64,000 nucleotides of DNA from Eledone cirrhosa (lineage: Eukaryota): contig OZ024742.1 of the NCBI GenBank assembly GCA_964016885.1, positions 238,700,001 to 238,764,000 on the forward strand, given 5' to 3'. Positions 6,533 through 50,400 of this stretch are shown in pieces. The notes under the pieces are model-generated. The model ran no database searches. It was not told where the DNA came from and saw nothing but the letters and a program-made list of their open reading frames with translations. The translations under genes and the position numbers were made by a program. Position 1 is the stretch's first letter. Each line of letters starts with the position of its first letter.

Positions 6533-6929
6533 CTGCAATGAAAAAAACAAACTGCTAACCTTTCATAACCACATACTAAGATGGGCATGGTGAAATACCT
6601 TTTACCTTTTCATTACCATATATCTAAAGTGTGGTTAGAAAAAGCTACCTCACTTACCGCTTTCACAGGCGCCGCTAAATCCCATGGCTGGTTTCTCCTC
6701 CCCCACGTGCGTACAATCCAACTCGTTAACCGGGAGCTGCAAAATTGACATACACCATGTTCCTGATCACCCTAGAGAGAGGCCGACCTGCTTGCCCTTC
6801 CGGTCGAGCACTCCTCAGCTTCCGGCCACCGCACACCACACCATACCCCTCCCCCAAGGATCAATTTCCCCCTTGTCATGCTGCATATGAAAGTCTGCTG
6901 TCCAGGTTGGTGGTTTGCGACTTCTTTGC

Positions 6930-10354: not shown

Positions 10355-11294
10355 ATCCTAATTTTGTCTTGCGGTAAGTAATAAAAAACAACAGACTCCT
10401 CTCTGTTTTTCCAGTAGCTTTGTTTTCGAGAAAGTTCTTTTTTTTTTTTATCAATCAGATCTCAGTTTCCAGTGCCGAAATAGCTTGTGGTTAGAAAAAG
10501 CTACCTCATTTACCGCTTTCGCAGGCGCCGCTAAATCCCATGGCTGGTTTCTCCTCTCCCATGTGCGTACAATCCAACTCGTTAACCGGGAGCTGCAAAA
10601 CTGACGTCCACCATGTTCTTGATCACCCTAGAGAGAGGCTGACCTGCTGGCCCTTCTGGTCGAGCACCCTTCCGGCCAAGCACCCTTCCGGTCAAGCACT
10701 CTTCCGGTCGAGCACTCCCCATCTTCCGGCCACCGTACACCACACCATATCCACATAAAGGACACTGCCAGTGTGTTTCAAATATTTTTTTAAATAATCA
10801 ATAATTTGGAGGGATTTCATCATATAACTAATTTTCTCATTATTTTTCTGGTGTTTGGAACATAAAGGTTCTGACAGAAAACTAAAATGGAAGGTTTTTA
10901 GATAAATATAAACACTTTAATTCTTTTGTTACTATACTTCTAATGAAATAAACTACCTGTGTATTGAATTAGATTTCTCCATAACTTTTGACTAAATAAA
11001 ATAGTCTGATAATAACAAAGTGTATAAACCTACTGAATGGAATAAGATGGGCATCATAGTCAAAGTTATGGTGAAATTTTCTAATTCATTATAAAGCTAG
11101 TATTTGGAATATAACTTAAAGGTTCTTGCATAAAATTATGATGGAAAGATTTTAGATAAACACTTTAAAATACCCAGTTTTGTATCATAGAAGCTGGGGT
11201 GGTTTCAGGTGATTTGGTATCAAAATAGTTAAATGTTTGATAGAGTAACCAAAAAATCTAATAACATGGTTGACGGTAATTTTCAAAAACTTAC

Positions 11295-27319: not shown

Positions 27320-28838
27320 TTCTTCTTCTTCTTCTTCTTCTTCTTCTTCTTCTTCTTCTTCTTCTTCTCCTTCTTCTTCTCCCCTCCTCCTCCCCCTCCT
27401 CACCATCATCATTTCCCCTCCTGCTCCTGTCAGAAGCAGCCGTCTCCAACTGACCCGACTTGATCTCCAAGCGAGACCAGCCAAGCTCATGGATGTCGTC
27501 CAATCATCTTGCTTGGGATCAGCCCATGGGTCTCCTGCCGGTTGGTTTTGCCCCCATGGGCATGTGGTTAGAATATCGGAGCTGTGATCTCTCAATTCGG
27601 AGAAGTAGCGGCTCTTCTTGGAGTGACTCTCTGATCTCCAAGTTATGCACTCTATCGGTCGCTTGTATTCGTGATCATATTCTTTCAGTCATTACCCAAG
27701 ATTCATGACCATAGGTAAAGATTGGCACAAATACCGAATTGAAGATAGCGAATTTGGCGTTTACGCCCTACCCCCTTCTTCTGATTACTGAATGCTGAAG
27801 TTGGCGTATTACTGCACCAGCTTTTGAAATTCTTGCACTTAATTCAGACTCCTGCCTTTCATCACCCGTCAACACAGCCCCAAGATACTTGAACTGCTTT
27901 CGTGGAACACGATTCGCATGTAGAGTGCACTGCTCAGGCTTCCTTGAGAGGGCGAGTGTCTCAATTTTCATAGCATCGATTTTCATTCCAGCCATGCAGC
28001 ACTTGGCATCAAACCTATTGAGTGCAAGTTGGAGATCACCTTTTGTCATCTGCAAATCCTAGCCGACTGATTTTACTCTCGCCAGTCGTGATATTACTTC
28101 CAGCCCGGCTGTGCATGTCAATCCTGTTCATGATAATAATGAACAGGAGAGGTGACAGTACGCACCCTTGGCTGAGTCTGACTCCCACATTGAATGGTTT
28201 CGATTTAGCACCATTTATCCGAACACAAATACTCGGGCATTCGTATAGAGACATCAGGGCAGCAAAAAGCTGACCATCGATCCCATACTCCTCCACAACC
28301 TTCCACAGCAGATCCCGAGGAACACGGTCATATGCTTTTTCAATGTCAACAAAACAAGAATATACTTCTTGGCTATACTCCCACGATTTCTCAAATACCT
28401 GCTGCAGTGTGAATATTTGGTCAGCTGTGCTGCGTCCTGGTCAAAAACCACACTATTCATCTGCTAACTTGGACTCGACAGTCTCCCTACATCTCTTTGC
28501 CAGACACTTATTCTTAAATTTTACCGGGAAGGCTTAACAAGGAGATCCCTCTGTAATTGGAACACTCTCTCTTGTCACACTTTTTTTAAATCGGGATTAT
28601 CACTTCCGATTGCCATCACTTAGGTGCCTTTCCAGAGATTCAGGCCACCTGGTACACATGACTCAGCCCTAGAATACCTTCTCTATTTAAGGCTTTTAGC
28701 ATCTCAGGCCGAAAATCAACTTCCCCAGCGGCCTTGCCACATTTGAGCTCTTTAACCTCAGCCTCCGAGAGATTAGTCACCACTCCCAGATGCACCTCCT
28801 GTACATCAGAAGATGCTAATGTGATCGGGTTTAGGAGA
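27320..28838 (-). mobile_element. RTE-clade LINE, 3' half of RT with (GAA)n tail, broken by G2
   Basis: GKAAG..PEMLK, VRLSQGCVLSPLLF, FADD, FKYLG; (TTC)n on + strand at 27320-27380. Confidence 0.9.
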
Positions 28839-31800
28839 TGTGGGGCTGCCGCGAGATAGAGGGGGGTGTAGAGCTGCCGTGGGAGGGAGATTGCCGGAAG
28901 TTGGGGGACGCCTGACCGGAAGCAGGAGGACGGGGGCGACTCGAGGGACCAAGCGGTCAACAGTGGCCTCTCGGCCATACGCCCTCGAAGGTGACGGACG
29001 TGCGAAGACAGACGCAAGCGGAAAGTACCCCCATGTGGACCAGAGAGACGCAAGGTAAGTTCGAATGCCTCCGACTACAAGCTATTTAGGCGTTTAATGA
29101 AATTTCCCATCTTTCGGCATTTTTACTCCCGGCACGGCAGCCCTTTAGTTTAGCTTTTTTTCTTTTTTGTTCCCTTTCGTGGGGTATCGTTGTTGGTTTT
29201 TTCCGATCTCGCAGGAGAGATGGCAGAGAAACTAAAATTGAATAGCAAGACTATCAAGGCTTTTAACGGCGAAGATGTTGTGGCCTGGTTGAAAAAGGTT
29301 ACATTGGTCGCCTCGCTGCAAGGCATTGACAACGTTGCTGGTTTGATCGCTCTATATCTCGACGGGGATACCCTAGCACTGTACCTCGAGATGGACGAGA
29401 GCGACCAACTGAATGCGGAGAGGATAGGACAGCGACTTAAGGAAGCGTTCATCGAGGGGCCGTACGCTGCTTTTGCCAAGCTAGACAGAGCGAGATGGCA
29501 GGGAGAGCACGTGGACGTGTTTGCGATAGAGTTACGACGATTGGCTATGTTGGCCGGATTCGCGGTAGAATGCGAATGCGCCGTGCGGCTGGCTTTTATG
29601 AACGGGTTCTCCGACGAAATCTCCGTGAAGCTCCAGCAGCTGCCCGGCAACAGGGAGATGAGCATGAACGAGCTCATCGCACAGGCCCGCGTAATAACAC
29701 AGGACACGAGGTGGAGTGTTGTAGCGCTGGCAGCGACGGAAACCATGGCAGTCGACAGCGACCGACGTATGACGAAAGGAGACCAGCCGCTGTGAATAGT
29801 CGTCCGCGTGCGTTCGGAGGCCGGTGCTTCAGGTGCCAGGGCCCGCACCTGGCAAGGGACTGCAGAGAGCCGAAACCAGCTATAGTCTGCTATCGCTGCA
29901 AGCGACCAGGCCACATCGCAAATAATTGCGACCAGGAGGCGAGTAGAGGCGCCTTTGCAGTTGTTGCCCGCAGTGGAAGCCATCGCGAGCAGTCGTGGAC
30001 ACGGGTTGCACGACAACACTAGTTGCACGACAACACTAGTGACCATGGAGGTGGTAAAAAAGTGGAGCGGGATGAGCAGTATAAGGGCAGTCGACGGCAG
30101 GGAGATTAGATGCAGAGGTACCAGCGAGGTGTCGATGGTGGTACGGGGAAGAAAGATTAGGCTTCGGGCGATCGTGATTGACCAGGTGGTGGACGGAATC
30201 GATGTAGTAATGGGCATGGACATGATTGGCTGCCTTGGAGGTGTTACAGTGACAGAAGTCGGGGTGACGTTTGGTAGCGAGAGGACATCATGTGCTGTGA
30301 GCGTGCTGGGAGAATCCACGAAGAACAGGGCGATCCAAGAAGAAAATACCATACATGACAAGGATTTCAGGGTGGTGTTCGATGGGCAGCGGTGGGTAGT
30401 TGAGTGGTACTGGAAGGGAGAGCCACCAACGCTGAAGAACAGAGTGGGCTGCTATCAACATACCCTGAAAGGAAATGCCAGAAACGAGTTTGAGGGAGAG
30501 GTACAGAGATGGATCGAGGAGGGTATACTGCTTCCTTGGAAGGAGGAGGTGAAGTGTGGAGTGTCGCCGCTGATGGCAGTGGTGCAGCCCACGAAGAACA
30601 AGGTTAGGCCGGTGCTGGACTTTCGTGAGCTGAACGAACACGTGCCATGCCACACAGGCGGTGAGGTCACGGATGTTTGCGGGGAAACTTTGCGAGAGTG
30701 GAGGCGAATGACAGGGGCCTCCACGATTGTCGACTTAAAGTCGGCATATCTGCAGTTACACGTGGATGAGAAGCTGTGGAAATATCAGCTAGTCAGGTAT
30801 AAGGGCCAGACATACTGCCTGACCAGGCTTGGCTTCGGGTTGAACTCTGCGCCAAAAATCATGGCGACGGTCCTCAAGGCCATTCTGTAGAAAGCGGACA
30901 AGGTGAAGAGGGCCACCAACTCCTACATCGACGACATCTTGGTGGACGAGACGGTGGTGTTAGCAGCAGAAGTCTCAGGCCACTTGGGAAGGTACGGACT
31001 GACTGCGAAACCGCCGGAGGCGATGGAAGGAGGAGCCGCGCTAGGACTCAGGTTGCAAAGGGATAAGACGGGCACACGAGTGTTTCGGAGGGGTAACGAA
31101 GTCCCGGAACTGGGCCCCGATATGTGTGGTAAATTGGTGGGCCACTATCCGATCGCAGGGTGACTCCGGACGGCATGCAGCTATGTCAAGAGACGAGCAG
31201 ACGGAGTGAGCTGGGCTGACAGGGTTGGAGAGAAGACAGTGGCCATGATGCAGGAAATCGGGGAGAGGGTAAAGGCGGATGACCCAGTGAAAGGACGCTG
31301 GTACGTCCCCAAATCGGAGAGCGGGACCGTATGGTGTGATGCAAGCAGCATAGCACTAGGGGTCACTCTGGAGATAGGGGGCGTCGAGGTCGAGGACGCA
31401 GCCTGGCTCAGGAAGAAGGAGGACTACATCCACATGAACGTGGCCGAACTGGATGCTGTGCTGAGAGGGGTGAATCTCGCCCTGAGATGAGGGCTGCGCA
31501 CCATAGAAATCCGCACTGACTCGGCCACTGTACTCGGATGCTTACCAGTGAGAGGAGGGTGCGAACGAGAGGGGCAGAAGAAATGTTGATAAAGCACCGC
31601 CTGGGAACTCTGGGAGAGCTAACCACTGAATTTTTTTTGCCCTCGGAGAAGAACAGGGCAGACGTATTAACCAGGGTGAAGAAAGCCTGGCTGGAAACGC
31701 CAGGGGACGCAGAGAAGGGGATAGCGGCAGTGTGTCGGCTCAGTGATTCGGAGTTGAGGGGACTGCACGCCATGCACCACATTGGGGTGGATAGGACCCT

Positions 31801-32838
31801 GTTCCTAGCCAGAAGAATCGACTCTGATGTTAGCAGACAGTGTCCAGAGAGTGGTCGGAGGTTGTGACAGACGCCAGTCTATCGACCCTGCCCCGGGCGT
31901 GCACGAGACAGGAAGCATCCCGGTGGAGCACAACTGGAAGTGATTAGCGGTGGACGTGACACACTACCGACAAGGAACGTATCTTTCCATAGTCGATTGT
32001 GGGCCGGGACGGATGGCGATATGGAGGGAAATGAAGACAGGGACTGTGGAGGAAATCGTGCAGATGCTGAGAGAGATATTCTTGGAGCGGGGCCTTGTGG
32101 ATGAACTGCTGATGGAGAACAGCACGGCGTTTCGCTCGGAGGCGCTGAGGGAAATGCTTGACAAGTGGAAGGTGAACCGCTTCTTCAGAGCGTCATACAG
32201 GCCGAGCGGAAATGGGATCGTGGAAAGACATCATCGTACGATCAAGGCCATGGCGGAAAGGGGGCATATTTTGCTAACGGAGGCAGTGTTCTGGTACAAC
32301 ATGTCTCCGGGGGTGGGACAGACCGAGGAGTCGGTGCCGCACAGGGCAATATACAGATATGAATGGCGACACCCGTGCACGGTACCACAGCAGCCGGTGG
32401 AGAGAGAGAGAGCGCATTCGTACGTTGGGCGAAAAGGTATGGATGAAGCCCCCGAACGCGCGTTGCACATCTCAATGGGGAAAGGGAATGGTAACCGCCA
32501 TAAATTACCAAAACAACGTGTCTATGGACTGTGGACGGAATGCCATGTCACGTCTTGGACGTCCGTAGAGTCGTTGTGGTGACAGACTCCGAGGAAGAGG
32601 GAAAATGAAAGTGCCGCCCCAACAGTGCGGAGATCGCAACGGAGCCTCCGCCAACCTAGGTGGGTGGCGGATTTTGAGATGGAGCAGTGTGATGGGGGGG
32701 GAGTGATCCTTGAGATCAGGGGGTCGTGTGGGGCTGCCGCGAGATAGAGGGGGTGTAGAGCTGTCGTGGGAGGGGGATTGCCGGAAGTTGGGGGACGCCT
32801 GACCGGAAGCAAGAGGACGGGGCGACTCGAGGGACCAA
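28839..32838 (+). mobile_element. Second compact Gypsy (G2), related to G1, decayed, 3' LTR truncated, inserted in an RTE LINE
   Basis: 5' LTR 28839-29079 (TGT...ACA); gag ATG at 29220; PR-RT 29955-30890; YIDD, RH and IN ORFs highly similar to G1; purine tract then 3' LTR 32727-32838, which breaks off. Confidence 0.95.
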
Positions 32839-35800
32839 TTCGTTGTATTCGTTCTGTTCTTGTTTGTTGTATTGTTGACCCATACTAATTTCTTCTCTTA
32901 TTGACTCTTTCTATATTATTCTTAGATTGAATAAAAACCTTTGATTTGGTACAAAATAATACAACAATTTTATTCAATCATGGATCCGAAAATATTCAAG
33001 AAAATTCTTCCGGATGATCCTAATGAATCCGATTATGCCTACTGGAAGAGAATGTTGGCGATCTATTTGGAAAACTTGTCTGTTCCTAACGAAAGTAAGC
33101 TGTCAGTTCTTCTGGTTCTTTGCGGAGCCAATGCTTATACTCTCATTGAAGAAGCAACATCATTCGATGAGGCGTTATCCATTCTTGATAATAAATTTCA
33201 AAAGAAAGGCTCAGCAATAATGACCCGACATAAACTACGCAACCATTGTCAACAAGAAGGGCAATCATTGGAGGCCTACATGACTGAATTAAAAGCCCTC
33301 GCAAAGAAATTCCCCACTAAACCCCTAACAGGGGAACAACATAGACAATTGTTGATTTGTGATGCGTTCGTGTCGGGTGTTTAATCCGCCACCATAAAAC
33401 AACGACTTCTGGAATCACCTGACGAAAATCTAGATAAAATATTCCAAACCGCTCTCACATTAGAACTAGCAATAGAAGACGCACAAAATCTGTCAACAAC
33501 AATATAACCGCCGTCACAACCCGTATTCGCTACTTCTTCATCAAAATGTTTCTGGTGTGGTGGTTCATATCACCAAAAATCAGAGTGCCCTGCAAAAAAT
33601 TCAACTTGCAATTTCTGCCACAAGAAAGGCCACTGGGCAACAGTATGTTTTGTTAAAAATAAGAAGGTACTAAAGAAGATAAAACACGCAGCAGTCTTGA
33701 ATAATAAGGAGGGCCCCGATGAAGCCTATGATGGCAGTAATCTTGCTGCCTGTTATAAACTTGCTTCCGTAAATCATAATACAAACCTTTTAACAATTTA
33801 TGTCAATTCACATAAAACAGAAGGTTTACTTGACACAGGCTCAGACAAGTCTTTCATTGACATGAACCTCTTGTCGAAATGGCAAAGTAAATTCAAGAAA
33901 ACTAAGAATAAGAGTGTAATTTTAGCCGACAACAGTAAACTCATAATACGAAGTACGTTTGAAACAACATTAGAATGGGAGGGCCGAGAATACCACATCG
34001 ATCTAATGGTGGTTGACAAACTCATTGCTCCAGTAGTTATGGGTCTTGATATACTTAAAAGGCAGAAGTCTTTAACAATAAAATATGCGGGGGACATGAG
34101 ACCAGTCACGATATGTATGTCAATGCAAACTCTGAATTGTGAAGAATATGATTTAATGCCTGGTATCGAAACTACAAAACTAAAACCATTATCTATACCT
34201 CCTCGAAAATACAATAAAACCAGCAATTCATTAAAACGGAAATCGACAGAATGCTTAAAGCTGGAATAATTCAACAGAGCAGAAGCCCATGGAGAGCGCA
34301 GTGCTTCGTAATAGATCAAGAAAACAAAAAACGTTTTGTCATAGACTACTCAGGCACTATAAATCGTTACACACCATTAGATTCATACCCTAATGCCATA
34401 ATCGAAGACCTAGTCAACAAAATTTCAAAATACGTATTTCTCGAAAATAGATCTAAAGGCAGATTATCACCAAATACCCATCAAATCTTCCGACTTTAAG
34501 TTAACTGCATTCGAGGCCTGTGGCCGACTATACGGATTTACCCGTCTTCCGTTTGGATGCACAAATGCCGTCCCAATTTTCCAACGAATAATGGACACTT
34601 TCATAGACAATTACAACTTACAAAATACCTACTCATACCTTGACGACATTATTATAATAGGCGGTGGATTGGCAGTATCGGTAGAGGGTCGGATGCCATG
34701 CTTTCCAGCATAGTTACGTCCCTTAACGATCTGAGTTCAAATCCCGCTGAGGTTGACTTTGCCTTTCATCCTTACGGGGTCGATAAAATAAAGTACCAGT
34801 AATGCACTGGGTAATTGCTGGCCTTGTGCCAAAAAGTAGAAACAATTATTATAATTGGCCCTTGCCATTCTGAGTTCAAATCCCGCCGAGGTTAACTTTG
34901 CCTTTCATCCTTACGGGGTCGATAAAATAAAGTACCAGTAATGTACTGGGATAATTGCTGGCCTTGTGCCAAAAGTAGAAACAATTATTATAGGAGAAGA
35001 CACAGTCGAAGAACATAACCATAACCTAAAGCAATTCATGAATGCAGCTAACAATGCAGGTATGCAATTGAATCGAGACAAATGCAGCGTTAATCAAAAT
35101 AGAATACATTTCCTTGGACTTGTCATAGAAAAAAGGTAAATTAAGACCGGACCCTGAAAGGTATAAAGCCCTTATTGACATGCCGTTCCCAAAGACGTTA
35201 AAAGAGTTGAACCGGGTAATCGGTCTTTTTGCATACTATGCTAAATGGATTAAGGGCTCTTCTAACCTCTCAGTCGTTCTTACAAAGGCAAGAAACACCA
35301 TTAATAAACAAGGTCTATCAAACGAAGAAAAATTTACTATTAATAAGATGAAGGAAGAACTCATAAAGGCATCACTGTGTTCACCCGATTTCACTACACC
35401 ATTTATAATCGAAACCGACGCATCAAATAATGCCATTGGCAGAACTCTATCACAAAATGGTCGTCCAATTGCTTTTCTTCGTAGAACACTAAATAAGTCA
35501 GAAAGAGGACATTCCATCATCGAAAACGAAGCTTGCGCAATTATAGAATGTTGTATAAAATAGAGGCATATAATCAGCGCTGTTCCACATTGTAATATAA
35601 TAACAGACCAATGATCGGTTGCATTTGCGTTCAACAAAAAACACACTTCCAAGATTAAAAACGAGAAGGTAGCCCGCTGGCGACTGGAGTTAAGCAATTT
35701 TAACCTTACCTTCTCATATAGACCTGGTTCATTAAACCAAGCCGCAGACGCCCTATCGCGCTGCTGCTCTACTAAGACGGAACACGAATTATACAATATT

Positions 35801-37097
35801 CACTGACGTCTATGTCATCCGGGGGTCACCAGACTTCTATATTATTGTAAATCAATGAACTTGGCATATTCTATTAATGAAATAAGAGAAGTTATCGCCA
35901 ATTGCAAAATATGCCGTGAATGTAAACCACAATTCTATAAACCACCCAAAGGAAGATTAATACATGCCACAAGACCCTGGGAAAGACTATCAATGGACTT
36001 TGTGGGTCCCATGGCTATCTCAAACGGTTTTCGATTTATATTAACTATAGTTGACGAGTACTCACATTTTCCATTCGCCATTCCCTGTAAAGAGATAACA
36101 ACCGACGTAGTAATTAAACATCTATTGGAGATATTCTCTATATTTGGAAAACCCAGTTCGATTCATACAGATAGGGGACGTCAATTTGAATCACAAAAAC
36201 TCAAAGATTTCTTATGGAGTAATAACATTATAAAAAGCCACACCACGCCATATCGACCCCAAGCCAACGGCCAATGCGAAAGAGTTAACGGCACAATATG
36301 CAAAGCGATAAGTCTGGCATTGAAGACAAATAATCTCAATAAAAATGGAGTAACATGATTCTAATCGCTCTGTCGTCTATCCGAGGATTGCTTTGCACTG
36401 CTACAAACGCCACGCCACATGAAAGAGTATTTTCATTCACCAGATCAACAAAGAACGGCACAGAAATACCAGAGTTGCTAAATAAACCGGGAACAACCGT
36501 GCTACATCGACGTCACATAAGGAATAAAGGTGATGATCTCACGGAAAACGTTCAACTCATCAAGACGATCTCACCCCACTTTGCCAAGGTACAATTTAAT
36601 AATGGAAGAATAGACACAGTCTCAACTACACACCTCGCACCAGCAGCATCACCACAAAACAATGGAAATTCAACAACATCGGAGTGTCAGAATAACAACT
36701 CCCCAAAAGGCGCCAATTTAACTCAACCAACAGTAATATCTACACCTGTGGCAGTTGGGAACGAAAGTATGACATCTACCGTCGATGACAATCCTACAGA
36801 GAGTGCGGAATTTAACGACGATGAATCTTCTGACACATTCTTAACCTCGAATAACACACCCCAACAACAAAGAACATGCCGAGGACGTGCTAGAGGGAAA
36901 GAATGTGATGATATGATTTGTTTTATAGCATCACTTTCTTCTCTTTGATTTGATTCCTTTTTATTCTTATTCGTTGTATTCGTTCCGTTCTTGTTTGTCG
37001 TATTGTTGACCCATACTAATTTTTTCTCTTATTGACTCTTTCTATATTATTCTTAGATTGAATAAAAACCTTTGATTTTGTACAAAATAATACAACA
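32838..37097 (+). mobile_element. AT-rich Gypsy LTR retrotransposon (G3), decayed, 5' LTR truncated
   Basis: 5' LTR remnant 32838-32966; 3' LTR 36904-37097 (TG...CA) after PPT AGAGGGAAAGAA; gag from 32980 with CCHC motifs ~33547-33650; LLDTGS protease; YLDD RT; ETDAS RNase H; IN (SMDFVGP, TDRG, CER). Confidence 0.95.
34657..34992 (+). mobile_element. Two tandem tRNA-derived SINE copies (second 5'-truncated) inserted in G3 RT
   Basis: A-box-like TGGCAGTATCGG, B-box GAGTTCAAATCC, core gcctttcatccttacggggtcgataaa...agtaccag; ATTATTATA at 34648, 34845 and 34984; excision restores YLDDIIIGEDTVEEH. Confidence 0.9.
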
Positions 37098-37101
37098 TAT
37101 A

Positions 37102-37762
37102 GGCATTGGTTAAGTTTAACGTCCTCGAAATTGAAAGTGGATTTTCTGACAAGTGAATGTGTTTTTTTGTTTTTTTACAGTGAAAGTTACGATACACTGT
37201 TTGTTTATTTACAACAGGTCTCTATAGTGATATGGTGTTAATTAGTATTGCGTGTGTGATTATTTTCTCTTATATATATATGTGTGGGTGTGTATATGTG
37301 TGTATATATATGTGTGTCTGTATGTATATATATATGTGTGTTTGTATATATATATGTGTTTGTGTCATCATCATCGTTTAGATGTTTTTACCCAAATCCC
37401 TTATCATTCTCTGTCTTTCTTATGACCCGGCCTTAATTTGTTTATAGTTGGTGCCAACTTTGGCAAGATATTACAAAAACATCTAAACGATGATGATGAC
37501 ACAAACACATATATATATACAAACACACATATATATATACATACAGACACACATATATATACACACATATACACACCCACACATATATATATAAGAGAAA
37601 ATAATCACACACGCAATACTAATTAACACCATATCACTATAGAGACCTGTTGTAAATAAACAAAGAGTGTATCGTAAATTTCATTGTAAAAAAAAAAACA
37701 AACACATTCACTTGTCAAAAAATCCACTTTCAATTTCGAGGACGTTAAACTTAACCAATGCC
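37102..37762. mobile_element. Mutator/Foldback-like non-autonomous element, 288-bp TIRs, 9-bp TSD
   Basis: Arms 37102-37389 and 37475-37762 (GGCATTGG...CCAATGCC), 85-bp spacer, TSD CAACATATA at 37093-37101 and 37763-37771. Confidence 0.9.
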
Positions 37763-37958
37763 CAACATATACGTATCCTTGTACTCATTAGCACACGACC
37801 CTAGAATATTACTCTCTGTACCCTTATATCTGTTTATCTTTATTCACTACCCCTAGCCACACAGGAATCACATTACATATAACCCGGACTAACTGGGGAC
37901 TAACTATAGTCTATTTGCACATTTCATCAGATTTTGCCACCTTCAACTTCGCATCACG

Positions 37959-38599
37959 AGTGTGAATAACTAATAATCGTTTGGTACACGCGATGATCCG
38001 ACGGATGTGGCAGCTTTCCCGACAGCACGCCAGGTACTCGGGTCGACCAGCCTTCCTTGAGTGCGTGCTTGGAAAAATAAATTTCCCCTTCTTTCGGTAA
38101 GCGAAAATACTCGGAACGGCTGCGTCGCCCTGGGGCCCTGTCGGACTTGGAACCCGCCGCGACACCGGCTATTGACCGCTAAACAGTACCTTTAAATTCT
38201 AGGCTTAATCATAACTTTTAACTTTATCTTACCTCCTTCTACTAGCACTTAACTAAATCCCCCACCAGTGTGAATAACTAGTAATCGTTTGGTATATACG
38301 ATGGCCAACCGACGGTGGCGGACTTCCCGCTAACACACCCGGCGCTTAAGACAGTTAACATTCCTGGAGTGCTTGGAAAACTAAATTTCCATTTCTTTCG
38401 CTAGACGATAATACTCGGAACGATTGACACGCCGTTGGGCCTCGGGCTGGCCGGGGTCCGCAACGTTGCTGGTTATTGACCGCTAAGCATGGGCTTAATC
38501 TTTGCTCTATATTCTACCCTGAAACTTTATCGTGACTATCTATAATACACTTAAACTTTTTCATAACAGCCTCCTTCTGTAAATTCTTTAACTAAATCT
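37959..38599. repeat. Diverged tandem duplication of a ~310-330 bp unit with GC-rich core
   Basis: Units start at 37959 and 38267; shared blocks agtgtgaataacta.taatcgtttggta, ccgacgg, gtgcttggaaaa.taaatttcc, aatactcggaacg, tattgaccgctaa, ggcttaatc, aactttatc, ttaactaaatc. Confidence 0.85.
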
Positions 38600-41982: not shown

Positions 41983-43985
41983 TGTAGTGACCTACATTCC
42001 GCGGGATCACATACATTCTCTGTGCGTTATTTGGCTCATCCCAGCCAATGACCGCCAGCGGAAGAGAATGTATCTCTACGCGCCCCGAGGGAAAAATTCC
42101 CGCGTCGATTTGAGAAATCTCTCTCTTGCATCCTGACCTCGAAAAGGTAAACAACTAACTTTCTTTCGTCGTGAAATCACTAGCCAATATGTAACACAAC
42201 AACTTAACCACGGTCTGGCAACACTTCAGCCAGTGGACCGTGCCTTCTGAAATTCTTAATTCGTTTGTTTCATTTCTCTTGGCATGTCTGCTCTACTCAG
42301 CTCTACATAGCTCAAACTTGTTAATAAATAAATTAAAACAAACCAAAGTCGTTGTCGATGTTCTTACTACCAAACTAATTACTCGTGGCGCAACTAACAA
42401 TAACACATCTTTACTTGTTAAATTGGTGACCCCGACGTGATGAATATTTTAAATACAAAATATTCCTTTTAAAATAAAAAAAATTAGCAGTATTTCAAAA
42501 AAGATTTTCGCCACGAGGAAATTTCAAAATGGCTACCACCAAGTACTTCTCTACTACCAGCCATCAGCAGCAACTGACGCAGCATAGTGTTCACCTTTGT
42601 GGTTATACCGCCGCGACTGCCACCACAACGAATAGCAGTCACCTAAAGCTTCTGGTAACACATTTACCACTACGGTGACTACCACAGCTTCGATACAGCT
42701 GCAATGACAACTTCGGCGCCATCAGCAGCAGCGACAACATTGGTTAACCACTAACCATAGACAACGCATGGTGAATTCGACTTCGATTCTACAGAGGATT
42801 ACTGTGATTTCGTTTCGATAACAACAACAACAACAACTCTACTAGCTTCCTAGTAAGAGCGATCCCAAAGAAAAGAAAAAGCGAACTTTGTGTTAAGAAA
42901 CAATTCTTTCTTTCTTTTTTTTTTTACAGGCAATGTTTGGACATTTTTTATTTTTAAAAACTGTATTATATGAAAATTCTTTTTTTTTTCTCTCTATCAT
43001 TATATATATGACTGCACGCACATTTTCTTTGCTGTTTACATGCCTGCATATGCACACACATTTCTTTGACACACACCAACATGTTGTTGTCCTTAGTGTA
43101 TGATATTCAAACGTCGTAATATTCTGCGAGATTCCTTATTACTTTGTGGAGACACCAAACATGCTATCGACACTTTGCAGCTTAACTCACCTGCACCGCA
43201 ACATGAGAATGCTAATTGCAGCTGGACTCAAACAATTTCGCATCTCGCTGCACACTCATCGTCCATAACAACCTCCGCTTGTTACTTTACCCGACTCCCT
43301 GGGAAAACAACAAATGGAACTGGACCTGTCAGCATTTCCACCATTTCTATGGATTCGCCAGAATTATGGAATTTACATTTCAACTACTACAGATTCAACT
43401 TGCTTTTTTCTTTTCAAAGCAGCCAGCCAGTTTTTCCTGGCTGCCTAGCACTTTCGGCAATACATCTGGGAGGCCGACATTTTCTCGCCTACTCATCATC
43501 TTCTTGCCAACACTGGTAAACTACCATAACAGCTTCACCCACAGCTACAACACTTACCATTAACATTTAATGCAAAAACAGCAACTTCGCCCATGTCAGA
43601 CTTTATCCGTTTTCTGTTAGACCTTTGGTGGTCACGTATAAACTACAAAACAGCTAGTCATTTGACACAGCGGCTCAACACGGCCCTTAGCGCCTCATTT
43701 TTTTCTTGCATGCATTCTTCTGTTCAATTATTTTTTTTCACTGATGTGCTCTTTCAGCATTTTTCTCTACTGATTCAATAATCTGTATCGTATTACGTCT
43801 AGAGGGGGAGTATTGTAGTGACCTACATTCCGCGGGCTCACATACATTCTCTGTGCACGATTTGGCTCAGCTCAGTCAATCAGCGCCAGTAGAAGAGAAT
43901 GTATCTCTACGCGCCCTGAGGGAAAAATTCCCACGTTGATTTGAAGAATCAGCCTCTCGCATCCTGAACTTCGAAGGAGCAACAC
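41983..43985 (+). mobile_element. Non-autonomous LTR element N1 with tRNA-Trp PBS; 3' LTR truncated
   Basis: LTR starts TGTAGTGACC at 41983 and 43814; PBS TGGTGACCCCGACGTGAT 42424-42441; PPT AGAGGGGGAG 43801-43810; no pol motifs inside. Confidence 0.85.
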
Positions 43986-44144: not shown

Positions 44145-46306
44145 TATAGCGGGTTTACTGGGTTGTATGAATGTAACAAGGAATACATTGTTTGTTTGTA
44201 GATAATATTTAATTAACAATGGTAGATAGTATAGTTGACATGTCAAAGATGAGGATGGTAGAATGAAGCAAAGTTAGTAGTTACCGTTTTGATTGCCAGG
44301 CAAACGCGGCTGGCAGAGGACGCCTGGCTAAGGCCAGGCGCCTGTTGGCCAAATGAATGGCAGAGCCAAAATGAGAGGCTCTTGACCTGGTGCCGAAAAG
44401 GCAATGAGAGTTTGAGAGCTTAAAGTTGTTAGTTTTATAGGGTTCTGACCGGAAGTTGCAGAAAGGGTTCTACTTCCCGTCTAGATCCTAATCAAAACAA
44501 GGGAGACAACCGCTACATAACCTCCCGCCAGAATTTTAGTGTATAAAAATCGAAATGAAAATATGTAGCAAGTTGGCGAGAATGTTGTAACAGGCATGAA
44601 AATTACGACAAAAGAATGTTTGGAAAAATCAATGATAGATATCAAGGTAGCCAACCGCTCTTGGCCAGAGAACGACTGGACATCCCTCTATCCATCACCC
44701 AAAGATACAATGTAATAAAGTAAAAGTAATAGAAGAGCTCAAAGTTCAAATGTACAAAATATAGTTCACAGGTGTGCAATCACATGGCAGCAGGAAAGAA
44801 AGTGTGTTCCAGAGAATGAATGCAGGTGGTTTCTGTTCTGTGGTATATCGTGAAATTTCCAACCTCCGAATGGATTTTCTCACAGGGAGAGTGCTGCAAA
44901 AATAAATTCTCTGGCGTTCTGCTGGTTGTTGGTGAAGCTGTGTTGATATATTGCTGCTGCTGCTGTTGTCTCGCTGAGTGAGCGTATTCGGTGTTTAAAT
45001 TCACAGTAAAAAAAAAAAAAAAAATTTTTTTTTCTTTTTTTTTAGAAAAAATGAGTTGCGCAAAGTGCTAGAAATAGCAGCCGAAGTTGATGGTCGATGT
45101 TGAGAATGCGTTGACCTGGAAGGGTCAAGAGGCCAGCGACCAGAGAAATAAGCATTCCCAATAAATGCGCGGTTATCAACGGCAAATTTACATTGTAAAT
45201 TTATAAACCGGCAAATAGAAGAATATAGCTTAAGGCTGAAGAATCCTTGGCGAGAAATGTTATCTCTGGCGTGCGGCTATGTCTGTGAGTAGAGACATCT
45301 CTGTGAATCGAGAATTTGTGCTGCCTACACGTGCCAATACAAGGTTGAAAAAAATAATATTTCTAACGCGCGAGAAAATGATAGTGCAATTTTGAAAGTG
45401 ACAATGATGAAAAAGAAAGGCTTCACTCAGCATAATTATTGGTGTGAACTTTGGGAAAAAAAAACTTGAACGATGAAGAAAACGATGAACAAAAAGGCAA
45501 TGGTTCATCGAAAATAAATGTTCCTGTTGAAATGTTTTTTTAAAGAATATCAAATTTTTTTTTTTTTTTTTTTTGTGTTTTGAAAGAGTTCGTTGTAAGA
45601 AACGAGAAACATATATATATATCGTGAAATGTTTTGTTTTTTTTTGTTTTGAAAGTGTTCGTTGTAAGAAACGAGAAACATATATATATATTGGTGAAAT
45701 GCGACAGTTAATTGATGCGTGAGAGAAAAAGTCTGTCTGTGCGAATTCCACATGTGCGTGTGTGCGTGTCCTTGAGTATTTTCATAGTTTGTCGATTAAT
45801 TTACTGTGTATTCGTAATGTTACTCACACGAAACCAGATGTGCTATTTTTTCTTTTTTTTTTGGGGGGGGGGGGGGGGTGTGTGACCACTTATAGCGATG
45901 AACGGCTGCGTGTTCGTATCACGTCAGGGTTACCAATATAGCGAGATTACTGGGTTGTATGAATGTAACAAGGAATACATGGTTTGGTGTATAATATTTA
46001 ATTAACAATGGTAGATAGTATAGTTGACATGTCAAAGATGAGGATGGTAGAATGAAGCAAAGTTAGTAGTTACCGTTTTGATTGCCAGGCAAACGCGGCT
46101 GGCAGAGGACGCCTGGCTAAGGCCAGGCGCCTGTTGGCCAAATGAATGGCAGAGCCAAAATGAGAGGCTCTTGACCTGGTGCCGAAAAGGCAATGAGAGT
46201 TTGAGAGCTTAAAGTTGTTAGTTTTATAGGGTTCTGACCGGAAGTTGCAGAAAGGGTTCTACTTCCCGTCTAGATCCTAATCAAAACAAGGGAGACAACC
46301 GCTACA
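44145..46306 (-). mobile_element. Non-autonomous LTR element N2, complete
   Basis: LTRs 44145-44517 and 45937-46306; 4-bp TSD ATTT; PBS TGGTAACCCTGACGTGAT (45918-45935, tRNA-Trp-like); purine tract beside 44517; 1.4 kb non-coding interior. Confidence 0.92.
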
Positions 46307-47075: not shown

Positions 47076-48659
47076 CCACTAAATAACTTCCTCTAAAGAG
47101 TCAAGCTGTACTCGGGTGAGGGACGCGGCACCGGTTCAGTTATCAATAAAACGTCTGTATAGCTCGGGAGTGGGGCTAGTGTATTGGGAAAAGATTTGGG
47201 CCTCAACATAGCCGATGAATAAATTGGCCATCTCTGTCGTCCGTTGGTACATCTCACAAGAGAAAGAGAAACAATTGAGGACGAGAATCAGCCGGCCAGG
47301 CGAATAAGGATGGAGATGGAAGGTTAAGGCGAAGGTCAAGGGAATGCTGGAGAGCTGTGTGGGATGGCAGGATGGTTACAAGGGGTTAAAAAATGGAGTC
47401 CAAGAAAGCAGAAACTAATTCTGTTGGACAATTGCACGCGGAGACGATGGGGTGTCCGATTTATGGATTTTGGGGAGGAAGTATATGGTGGAAATACGTG
47501 GTGTGTGGACGATAATGTTGGTTGCTGTGGCGGGTAGGAGTGTGGAGGTGATAAGTTCGCGTAAAGTGAAGGAAACTGATAGAGGAGTGGGGTTAGAAGA
47601 CAGGAGGCGGTATAAGAGGAGGGTTGTGGAGGTGCCGTAACGCCTTCGTTTTGTAGCGGTTGGCGCGTCATATGATCACAGCACCCCCTTTGGCGATGTC
47701 ATCATGCTGTCGGAGGGAGAGAGGTCGGCGATATCTACCCGAGAGATGTTTCTCCGTTGAAAGCGTTTCCGAAAGTCGAACCGATTCATTTCTCGATGGA
47801 AGGCGTCATCAAACGTGTCTAAGGCACTGAATTGTCTGGAGGACGGCGTCCAGTGCGATGGTCGTCCACCCAGCTCATCAAGGAGGCTAGAATTGTTCAG
47901 AGCCGGAGCGATATCATAAAAATGAGCTTGCAATTTTTTCCGACGCTTCTACGTTCAACATCGGAGTGGGTCAGAAATTCATCGCCGGAAGATGTGAGGG
48001 GCATGAAGCGCAGACCTCTACTGAGGAGTGATCGCTCAGATCCGGAGAGGGGAAGGTCGGGGGTAGAGTGACAAGTTGTGGGTTCGGTGGAGTGGAGTTT
48101 GGATCAGAAGGGTTGGATAGGGAGTTAGTAGAAGGAAGAGGGTATACTGCGGGTGCGAGTGAGGGCTAAGAAATAGGAGTGGAAAGGTGGGAAGGTGAAT
48201 GTTGGTGAGGTGCGTGTGAGTGTACTGGTGGGGTGGGATGAAAGAGAGAATTAAGCTTGCGAAGTTTGGTGAAGGTGAAGAAGTCGAAGAGTAGGTAGTT
48301 GAGGTGTAGGATGAAGAGAATTATTGAATGTGAGAGGAAAGGGCGACAGGTAGAACATAGGAGAAAGGTTTGGGGGAGGTCGCAGTTGATGGTGCAAATC
48401 TAGGACATGGTGAAACGTAGGGTGGCTTGCATAAGAAGGCAGGATGGTCTGTAGAGGATGGGCTAAATGGAGGAGAAGGAGTAGGTTGTGGGGTGGAAAT
48501 GGAGGCGAAAACTCTGCGGGATGAGATGTAGACAACTGCTGAGGTGATATGGCTGGTGTATTGGGCTTTTGCGATGACGAGGTATGACAGGCGGAGAGCA
48601 GGTTGGCAACAGAAATTATTATTTTGAGTGGAGGTGACGGAGGAAAAATGTTTGGTTAG

Positions 48660-50400
48660 GCATGTCGTGTTCATTCTCGGAAGCACTTGCTACCAGTACG
48701 TCGTTAATATACGCGTATACGAAGGGTAGATCGCGTAACACGGTGTCAATAAACCGCTGAAAAGTTTGTGCAGCGTTGCGCAGACCGAACGGCATTCGCA
48801 GGAATTCGAATAAACCGAACGGTGTTGTGAATGCGGTCTTCGGAATGTCTGCAGGCTCCATAGGTATCTGGTTATATGCACGCACCAAATCTACCTTGGA
48901 AAAGATACGTGCGCCTTGCAGAGAGGCAGAAAAATCGTGCAGGTGAGGTACAGGGTAATTATCGGACACTGTAGAATTGTTAAGTGCACGATAATCCCCA
49001 CATGGTCGCCAATCATTCTCGGTTTTATTTGGAACAAGGTGTAGGGGTGCAGACCAGTTGCTGGAGGAAGGGCGAATGATTCCGAGGTCTAGCATGTGTT
49101 GGAACTCCTGCTTGGCGATTCTCAATCGGTCTGGAGGCAGTCTCCTTGGTCGGGCAGCTGTGGGTGGTCCCTTTGTCTCGATGTGGTGCGTGACACTATG
49201 CTTAATAGGACCATCCTTAAATACCGGGCGAGTGATGTCTGGGTATTTCTGGAGAATGCCGTTGTACCGCGAAGGCTCTGACTGGCAAATTACAGGGCTC
49301 ACTGTGGATTGCGTGGTAAATATACCTCTCACAGTGAGGTTTGTGGTGGTGTCAATTAGCCTCCGGTTCTTCATGTCCACCAGAAGGTTGAAGTGGTGGA
49401 GAAAATCGGCTCCTAGGATCGGGGTCGGCAGGTCTGCCACGACGAACACCCATTGAAAACGCCGCCTCAGGCCTAAATTGAGGGTCAGAGACTTCTCCCC
49501 GAAAGTCGGAATTGACGATTGGTTCACTGCCTGCAGAAAGGACATGGTTGGGTGTCTTTTGCCCGAGATTAGTGAAACCGGAATAACACTAACCTGGGCT
49601 CCTGTATCCACGAGGTAACGGATGCCTGTCGCCTGGTCGTTAATAAAAAATAAACGACTTTTCTTTTCAGTACCAGGGGTGAACGTCGTCGCCAGGCCCT
49701 GGGTGGCATTCCGGAAAGAGCACGGGGCTTTGCACTTAGATGCCTGTGCGCCGAAATTTGTGTGATACCAGCAGAGGTTGCCAGGCACACGATTTTGACT
49801 GGGACTACTGGATCTTCGACTGTGAAAAGGCCTGGATCGACTGTTGCTGCGTCACCGGTGTGTTTGAAAGGTCAAGTTCTCTACTTGATTCGAGAGGGCT
49901 TTAATTTGACCAGCCCGCTCTCTGATCATAGCCCGCAGCTCTGAAATCTCGGCCTCTGTCGTTTGTGACATGTCCATGTTGATATTTTCTTAGGTGCTGT
50001 CTGGTTGCGCGTTCGACTCACGTTCGGGTCACCAATTGTAGCGACGTGGTTAGTCCGTCTAGTCACTACTTCTGATCAGATCTGAAGGTAGTCCTTAAAA
50101 GGACTGTTGTCGCATATAGCCCTTAAAAGAACTGTTGAGGATGGACAGACGAAAGCACAAGTTGAAAGGACGAAGCAAGGCGAGATGTAAATTCGATCAG
50201 CTATTTATTTTCACATGAAGCGACGATACGAGGTACAAGGCGTGTGTGAGTGACAAAGCGTGGCAGAGGCGAGGAACAACGATGCGCTAGCTGACTCTGC
50301 CAAAAGTCGACTGCTGAAGTGTTTGGAACCACTCTATTTATACAGAAACAATCGTTTGATGTTTAGCCGATGTGTAGGCGTTTATTCTGGTAGGTTTTAA
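48660..50400 (-). mobile_element. CsRn1-clade Gypsy fragment (LTR, PBS, deleted gag, PR, partial RT)
   Basis: CWYH...C..PC (CHCC gag motif), [29 protein letters not shown]; PBS TGGTGACCCGAACGTGA at ~50018-50034; inner LTR edge at 50037, outer edge uncertain. Confidence 0.9.

Follow-up and report, generated by a model that had tools for sequence, protein, structure and literature searches.

A predicted self-priming site complementary to the LTR in an invertebrate Ty3/Gypsy lineage that includes the G3 element of Eledone cirrhosa

Results

Structure of the G3 element

The window analyzed here, a stretch of 64,000 nucleotides of Eledone cirrhosa DNA, contains a retrotransposon that we call G3. 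Its single gag-PR-RT-RNaseH-IN frame (32980..36948, forward strand) is broken by in-frame stops, frameshifts and one insertion. The Gag part carries two Cys/His knuckles, and the Pfam matches follow in the order PR-RT-RNaseH-IN with no chromodomain match. With this domain order inside TG...CA LTRs and with a polypurine tract (PPT, 36892-36903, forward strand) directly before the 3' LTR, G3 has the organization by which Ty3/Gypsy elements are recognized, and in a search of the PDB the Ty3 RT was the top match, with no entry bearing on priming. The 3' LTR is complete (36904-37097, forward strand, 194 bp, TG...CA) and has no pairing partner downstream. The 5' LTR is a remnant (32838..32966, forward strand), 97% identical to 36969-37097, of which the first 65 nt are gone. 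When 32838-32966 is aligned with 36969-37097 there are 4 differences in 129 nt, and the two copies diverge directly after ...ACAACA. At 32837/32838, with one base shared, the remnant is joined to what is left of the 3' LTR of G2, the element next to it, while sister copies of G3 run leftwards past 32838 with an intact U3, as seen from loose read ends at 32838. A repeat of family D2, which we take to be SINE-like, is inserted within the RT region (34660..34990, approximate edges). With its many ORF breaks, the repeat in RT and the truncated 5' LTR this copy is dead; intact relatives have a single ORF of 1189-1223 aa.

G3 is surrounded by other repeats. G2 (28820-32838) is a second Gypsy-like element with a divergent RT and a 3' LTR cut short at the G3 junction; its leader (28963-28980) starts with GTGG and can form a 5-bp hairpin. 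Just right of the G3 3' LTR, at 37241-37780, a repeat bearing an AT microsatellite lies in a large inverted arrangement, and at 48619-49851 on the reverse strand there is a retrotransposon frame with a CHCC-type Gag knuckle, presumably CsRN1-like, which served as an outgroup in the tree described below. Element G1 (LTRs at 6630-6816 and 10486-10672) has, right after its LTR end, 12 nt without TGG (10474-10485, reverse strand) that we take to be the complement of the tRNA-Phe 5' end. A site that starts with TGG lies at 42424-42441 (forward strand), with a degenerate copy near 45915-45935 (reverse strand), and is presumably a tRNA-Trp primer-binding site. Three different modes of priming were counted for this window in the initial annotation; the two further leaders do exist, and their tRNA assignments are putative.

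The G3 leader is an exact complement of the LTR

The leader of G3 is only 13 nt long (32967-32979) and consists of one A followed by a 12-nt complement of the LTR, after which the gag ATG starts at 32980. There is no TGG in these 13 nt; the short gap lacking TGG had already been read from the sequence alone and was borne out by the LTR comparison. The TGG at 32981 was considered as a primer-binding site (PBS) and rejected, as it belongs to the start codon, 14 nt away from the end of the LTR. The predicted PBS (32968..32979, forward strand) begins 1 nt after the LTR end, runs up to the gag ATG and is the exact reverse complement of 32925..32936 (forward strand), the predicted self-primer arm of the LTR, in which AATAAA occupies 32930-32935. 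That the arm recurs in the 3' LTR with its AATAAA was also part of the initial annotation, and is confirmed at 37056-37067 and 37061-37066. The window has three copies of the 12-mer (32925-32936 and 37056-37067 on the forward strand, 32968-32979 on the reverse strand), against 0.01 expected by chance, and the AATAAA of the arm is the only AATAAA or ATTAAA in the full 3' LTR.

When the LTR (36906-37097, 2 nt short of its true start) was shuffled 20,000 times with its dinucleotides preserved, 10 shuffles gave an LTR complement of at least 12 nt starting 0-5 nt past the LTR end. For comparison, self-priming has been predicted in the literature from an LTR complement of at least 10 bp starting 0-5 nt after the LTR (PMC6317226); G3 has 12 bp starting at +1. 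Folding of 32925-32985 gave z = -3.2, while longer stretches fold weakly (z from -0.55 to -1.75), so that the stretch from the arm to the ATG alone stands out. Rfam returned no match within 28000-38000 of the window.

Sister copies of the same element were sought by mapping public sequencing runs onto 32760-33200. In run X1, which may be the window's own source and is hence not independent, a contig with a depth of 126 crosses 32960-33200 without a gap. Run X5, from another organism, gave two gap-free contigs, 32912-33081 and 32912-33094, with 14 and 13 differing letters; base 32937 is G in most X5 copies, which matches the usual base after the arm in the lineage. Nothing from run X6 mapped to 32760-33200, and run X7 gave few reads. 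Since the sister copies cross the junction of LTR, leader and ATG gap-free, no tRNA site has been deleted in G3.

The complement is a trait of the lineage

Scans for distant relatives of G3 produced 86 loci. Set aside were 39 loci with no gag-start match, 5 with the start off the contig, 3 permuted contigs and one locus that was too short (L009), which left a survey set of 39 loci, i.e. 38 relatives and the window itself. These loci are not independent and were reduced to 17 families, which are 37-78% identical in RT-RNase H. When the sequence upstream of gag was searched blindly for its best 11-bp register, 27 of the 39 loci gave 11 of 11 pairs, compared with none of 468 shuffles, and 32 of 39 loci gave at least 10 of 11 pairs, compared with 23 of 468 shuffles. 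By eye, six of the seven loci with lower scores (L003, L017, L032, L040, L043 and L069) are rearranged, decayed or truncated upstream; the seventh, by subtraction L010, has an 11-bp duplex in another register. The three permuted loci that had been set aside were examined afterwards, and all have a duplex of 13-15 bp. It is clear from these counts that the complement is a lineage trait and not a deletion in this copy.

The layout seen in G3 is shared by the 17 families. The PBS starts one nucleotide past the CA of the LTR end, and this CA is intact in 16 of 17 families; the LTR ends were set by the 3' LTR copy where one is present. For 13 of the families the register was found via the complementarity search, yet it fell on the independent LTR-end anchor. 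The LTR arm has the same register throughout, ends at the position of the poly(A) hexamer and is followed by RCC. TGG is found at the PBS in none of the 17 families, where a lineage of tRNA-primed Gypsy elements would have it fixed in a PBS 0-5 nt after the LTR. The PBS takes the form of 14 different 11-mers, each matching its own LTR, and the duplex reaches 13-19 bp in many relatives. The two arms are separated by loops of 21 to 54 nt, and in the in-register families the ATG follows the PBS start at a distance of 12 to 49 nt. The suggestion that the duplex abuts the start codon is thus correct for G3, but not as a general rule. In the family of L070 and L002 the hexamer position reads GAAGA, and yet a 15-bp duplex and the stem that follows it are perfect (L070:57-138); the canonical hexamer is also missing in L013 and L010, where the duplex is kept.

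Named relatives come from Hydra, Trichuris, Caligus, several insects and Biomphalaria, and the hosts of the lineage are invertebrates. A search of a viral collection found no relative of the G3 lineage. Six loci (L081-L086) lie on contigs of bacterial MAGs, which are probably contaminated with host DNA.

Covariation of the LTR arm and the PBS

If the arm and the PBS pair with each other, they should change together. Over positions 1-12 of the 17 families, 200 of 204 cells are Watson-Crick pairs, with one G·U and three mismatches, and when the register is slid by 1-3 nt only 42-85 of 204 cells pair. A leader pairs on average at 10.8 of 11 positions with its own LTR and at 7.4 of 11 with the LTRs of other families, and none of 100,000 permutations reached the observed value. 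The same holds outside the hexamer (positions 7-11), where the numbers are 5.0 for the own LTR and 2.9 for other families, again with none of 100,000 permutations. On the tree we count at least 39 two-sided changes at positions 1-12; compensatory changes of LTR motif and PBS across subfamilies, which had been proposed as a check of self-priming, are therefore present. The duplex has a sharp boundary on its 3' side and a ragged one on its 5' side: 16 of 17 families pair at position 12 and 9 of 17 at position 17, and this fading between positions 12 and 18 means that the 5' end of the primer is not sharp.

Two explanations that do without an interaction of the element with itself can be weighed at this point. 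The complement could have arisen by chance in AT-rich DNA, or a normal tRNA site could have been lost from this particular copy; the G3 LTR does have a GC content of 27%, and the copy is truncated and decayed. A normal tRNA PBS in the relatives, deleted here, is also one of the findings that the initial annotation had named as fatal to self-priming, and it did not turn up either in the gap-free sister copies or in the 17 families. Together with the rarity of such complements in the shuffles, the count over 39 loci and the layout common to 17 families lead us to reject both the chance complement and the deleted tRNA site, whose probability we regard as negligible. Alternatively, the primer could be a small RNA of the host, be it a fragment from within a tRNA or some other species, with a chance resemblance to the LTR arm, and half-tRNA priming is indeed known from copia lineages (PMC6317226). 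The covariation argues against this explanation, since a host RNA of fixed sequence could not follow the changes of the LTR, and so do the 14 different 11-mers in 17 families that each pair with their own LTR; we consider a host primer highly improbable.

A second stem and the putative transcription start

The first base past the predicted primer cut opens a second stem. In G3 it has 3 bp (ACC/GGT, 32937..32950, forward strand) and would on its own be unremarkable (p = 0.066). In all 17 families a stem of 3-9 bp starts from the first base after the arm, with a score of 187 compared with 110.6 and a maximum of 143 in shuffles that kept the first four bases (none of 2000 reached the observed score). 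In 9 of 17 families the stem opens with a G·U pair, the next two C-G pairs are invariant, and a two-sided change of the fourth pair is seen in only two families; the invariant pairs could be a sequence motif. From the comparison it appears that wobble pairs are tolerated where the RNA only folds, as in the second stem, and are nearly absent where templated copying is predicted, as between arm and PBS.

An A is found at position -11 in 13 of 17 families, and in L047 this position has a full match to the initiator motif TCAKTY (PMC3601003). This points to a transcription start at or just before that base, which in G3 would be 32924-32926. By eye, no TATA box stands at a fixed distance across the 17 families.

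The G3 lineage groups apart from the sampled chromoviruses

An RT phylogeny had been suggested as a means to tell whether the lineage is independent of the Tf1-type chromoviruses. Our RT-RNase H tree is a quick, unrooted one, made without Tf1 itself and with only two long-branch outgroups, and in it 31 lineage rows fall on one side of a branch (SH-aLRT 100, stem length 1.07) while 24 rows of chromodomain-bearing elements are set apart by another (98). The G3 sub-branch comprises 8 rows, and the sister copies are its sole other members with DNA context. By Pfam there is no chromodomain in the C-terminal frame of the window, in L013 or in proteins P0005 and P0015, and a profile built from two sequences found it in none of 129 proteins from the homology search, compared with 31 of 150 in the comparison set. 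The seeds of the comparison set were two chromodomain elements found with a shorter RT pattern; another RT pattern matched nothing. By these two tests, membership of G3 in the Tf1/sushi chromoviruses is rejected. The tree excludes nesting among the sampled chromoviruses, and is compatible with either an independent origin of self-priming or an ancestral self-priming that was lost elsewhere. As an observation by the side, a fungal-type chromovirus (L088, about 1030-1185) shows by eye a TATA box, then a 9-nt leader complement, and no AATAAA in the arm, a Tf1-like layout that contrasts with that of the G3 lineage.

The lineage may correspond to the Cigr-1 clade of Ty3/Gypsy elements, known from Ciona intestinalis and also from molluscs. 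The single ORF of about 1200 aa and the short LTRs presumably match the Cigr-1 architecture, and the Biomphalaria glabrata protein P0104 falls inside the G3 lineage. Cigr-1 families, filed under Mag, have been listed in B. glabrata and Octopus bimaculoides (PMC6238403). The passages on Cigr-1 consulted there make no statement on its priming, and four lineage peptides were not found in the searchable supplements of that paper; we offer the assignment as a lead only.

Discussion

Above we showed that the leader of G3 and its relatives is complementary to the LTR, that arm and PBS change together and that a tRNA site is absent from all 17 families. Tf1 reportedly requires additional RNA structure at the cut. 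In Tf1 the transcript's initial 11 bases anneal to the PBS, RNase H cleaves between bases 11 and 12 (PMC7175516), and the PBS is copied into the cDNA (PMC11042837). Collectively, our data strongly support the proposal of the initial annotation that G3 was self-primed in a similar manner. In our reading the RNA's own 5' end takes the place of a tRNA as primer and the PBS is recopied from this primer, and we consider this reading, based on sequence comparison, to be probable.

In such a cycle transcription would start approximately 11-17 nt upstream of the hexamer end, and the first 11-17 bases of the RNA would pair with the site 1 nt past the LTR end, the step for which sequence and covariation speak directly. 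The short stem would then open at the next base after the arm, a feature for which there is some covariation, and the RNase H of the RT would, as in Tf1, cut where the two helices meet, immediately past the hexamer, and release a primer of 11-17 nt. Reverse transcriptase would copy just 21-54 nt to reach the cut and could then jump via the 10-30 nt that lie between the hexamer and the poly(A) site. Finally, the primer would be copied into the plus strand, as shown for Tf1, so that the PBS is rewritten in every cycle. Rewriting of this kind would explain why the changes are two-sided and Watson-Crick, and scarce G·U pairs in the arm-PBS duplex are what one would expect from it.

The position of the arm on the poly(A) hexamer calls for comment. 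Since the pairing partner follows the 5' LTR only, a duplex that masks the 5' poly(A) signal is geometrically natural, and it is plausible that arm and PBS hide this signal as a side role. Should the duplex then be seen as a purely structural stem over the 5' poly(A) signal, and not as a primer site at all? The arm does end at the LTR hexamer in most families, and retroviruses regulate their poly(A) sites by RNA structure (PMC2645353, PMC3694450). In the HIV-1 polyA hairpin and in the suppression of the foamy-virus 5' LTR poly(A) site the likeness extends to an RNA structure over AAUAAA in R (PMC2645353, PMC3694450), but HIV, which is primed by a tRNA, has its hairpin at either end of the RNA, whereas in the G3 lineage the partner strand is present at the 5' end only and is the PBS itself. 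The family of L070 and L002 is a natural control that separates priming from poly(A) masking: there, and in L013 and L010, the duplex is equally perfect despite a non-canonical hexamer, and masking is therefore at most a second role. In a mere stem, moreover, G·U should be as acceptable as in the neighbouring one, where 9 of 17 families have it at one pair, against 1 of 204 cells in the duplex; such a stem has no need to start exactly 1 nt past the LTR end when loop lengths range between 21 and 54 nt, and it would leave the element without any other primer site. We judge such a purely structural function to be quite unlikely.

A different question is whether the primer, if the element primes itself, is the capped end of the RNA. 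It could instead be a 5' fragment that is longer and leaves a tail unpaired, a short RNA terminated early within the 5' LTR, or the arm of the 3' LTR, be it of the same genome or of a partner, released by a cut past the hexamer. The identical arm at 37056-37067 and a duplex that is sharp at its 3' edge and ragged at its 5' edge fit these variants. A longer primer would be copied further, so the complement should exceed 11-19 nt; the conserved A at -11 in an initiator-like context fits a start within the arm; and cutting of the 3' copy would presumably destroy the repeat needed for strand transfer. A primer other than the cap end has a small but real probability, and we regard self-priming by the RNA 5' end as the best account of the leader.

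Self-priming is known for Tf1/Tf2, has been proposed for Tj1, Tf1/sushi and Tcn1 and is predicted for TAR copia elements (PMC4600332, PMC6317226, PMC6934838, PMC5006619). Like Tf1/Tf2 of Schizosaccharomyces pombe, Tj1 of S. japonicus, Tf1/sushi and Tcn1, the G3 lineage has no tRNA site and an LTR-complementary PBS right after the 5' LTR (PMC7175516, PMC4600332, PMC6317226), and it shares with the Tf1-type chromoviruses a core of about 11 nt and the Ty3/Gypsy domain order. Unlike them it lacks a chromodomain, forms a separate long-stemmed RT-RNase H group and has a Gag with two Cys/His knuckles; its arm ends on the poly(A) hexamer and lies 21-54 nt from the PBS in a duplex that is often 13-19 bp long, the leader to the ATG is very short and the hosts are invertebrates. 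Experimental proof of self-priming comes from Tf1 of fission yeast, and its chromovirus relatives and one copia lineage of plants are predicted to self-prime (PMC7175516, PMC6317226); for the G3 lineage the argument is a comparative one. The plant lineage in question, TAR (Houba/Osr-1), is a Ty1/copia group outside the chromoviruses for which the prediction uses the same LTR complement (PMC6317226), and it differs from the G3 lineage in superfamily, domain order and hosts. Since self-priming is predicted there as well, repeated origins of self-priming are already accepted.

Our literature search, which covered sources other than Repbase records and older subscription papers, found self-priming described for groups other than the G3 lineage. 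Whether the complement was noted earlier in Repbase or in older papers is in our estimate about evenly balanced. In any case the G3 lineage would represent a known kind of mechanism in a separate lineage and not a new kind of system. A bolder proposal, which we put forward tentatively and think somewhat more apt to fail than to hold, is that a widespread animal Gypsy lineage, present in cnidarians, molluscs, arthropods and others, came to self-priming on its own, with no link to that of the Tf1-type chromoviruses, and built its primer from the poly(A) signal. One duplex, formed after the 5' LTR only, would then both silence premature polyadenylation and become the primer, and a stacked, G·U-tolerant stem would mark the RNase H cut.

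If that proposal is true, the leader would be a two-in-one switch that escapes control via host tRNA fragments and makes do with 21-54 nt of strong-stop DNA. That the arm overlaps the poly(A) signal gives a testable answer to the question of how a very short LTR avoids that the transcript ends in the 5' copy, and the many natural variants of the lineage could be used for working out what RNase H recognizes when it cuts an RNA duplex. Annotation that demands a tRNA site misses elements of this type, which would also be blind to silencing by tRNA fragments. Self-priming in a separate and widespread invertebrate lineage would show that this mode of priming either arose again or is older than thought.
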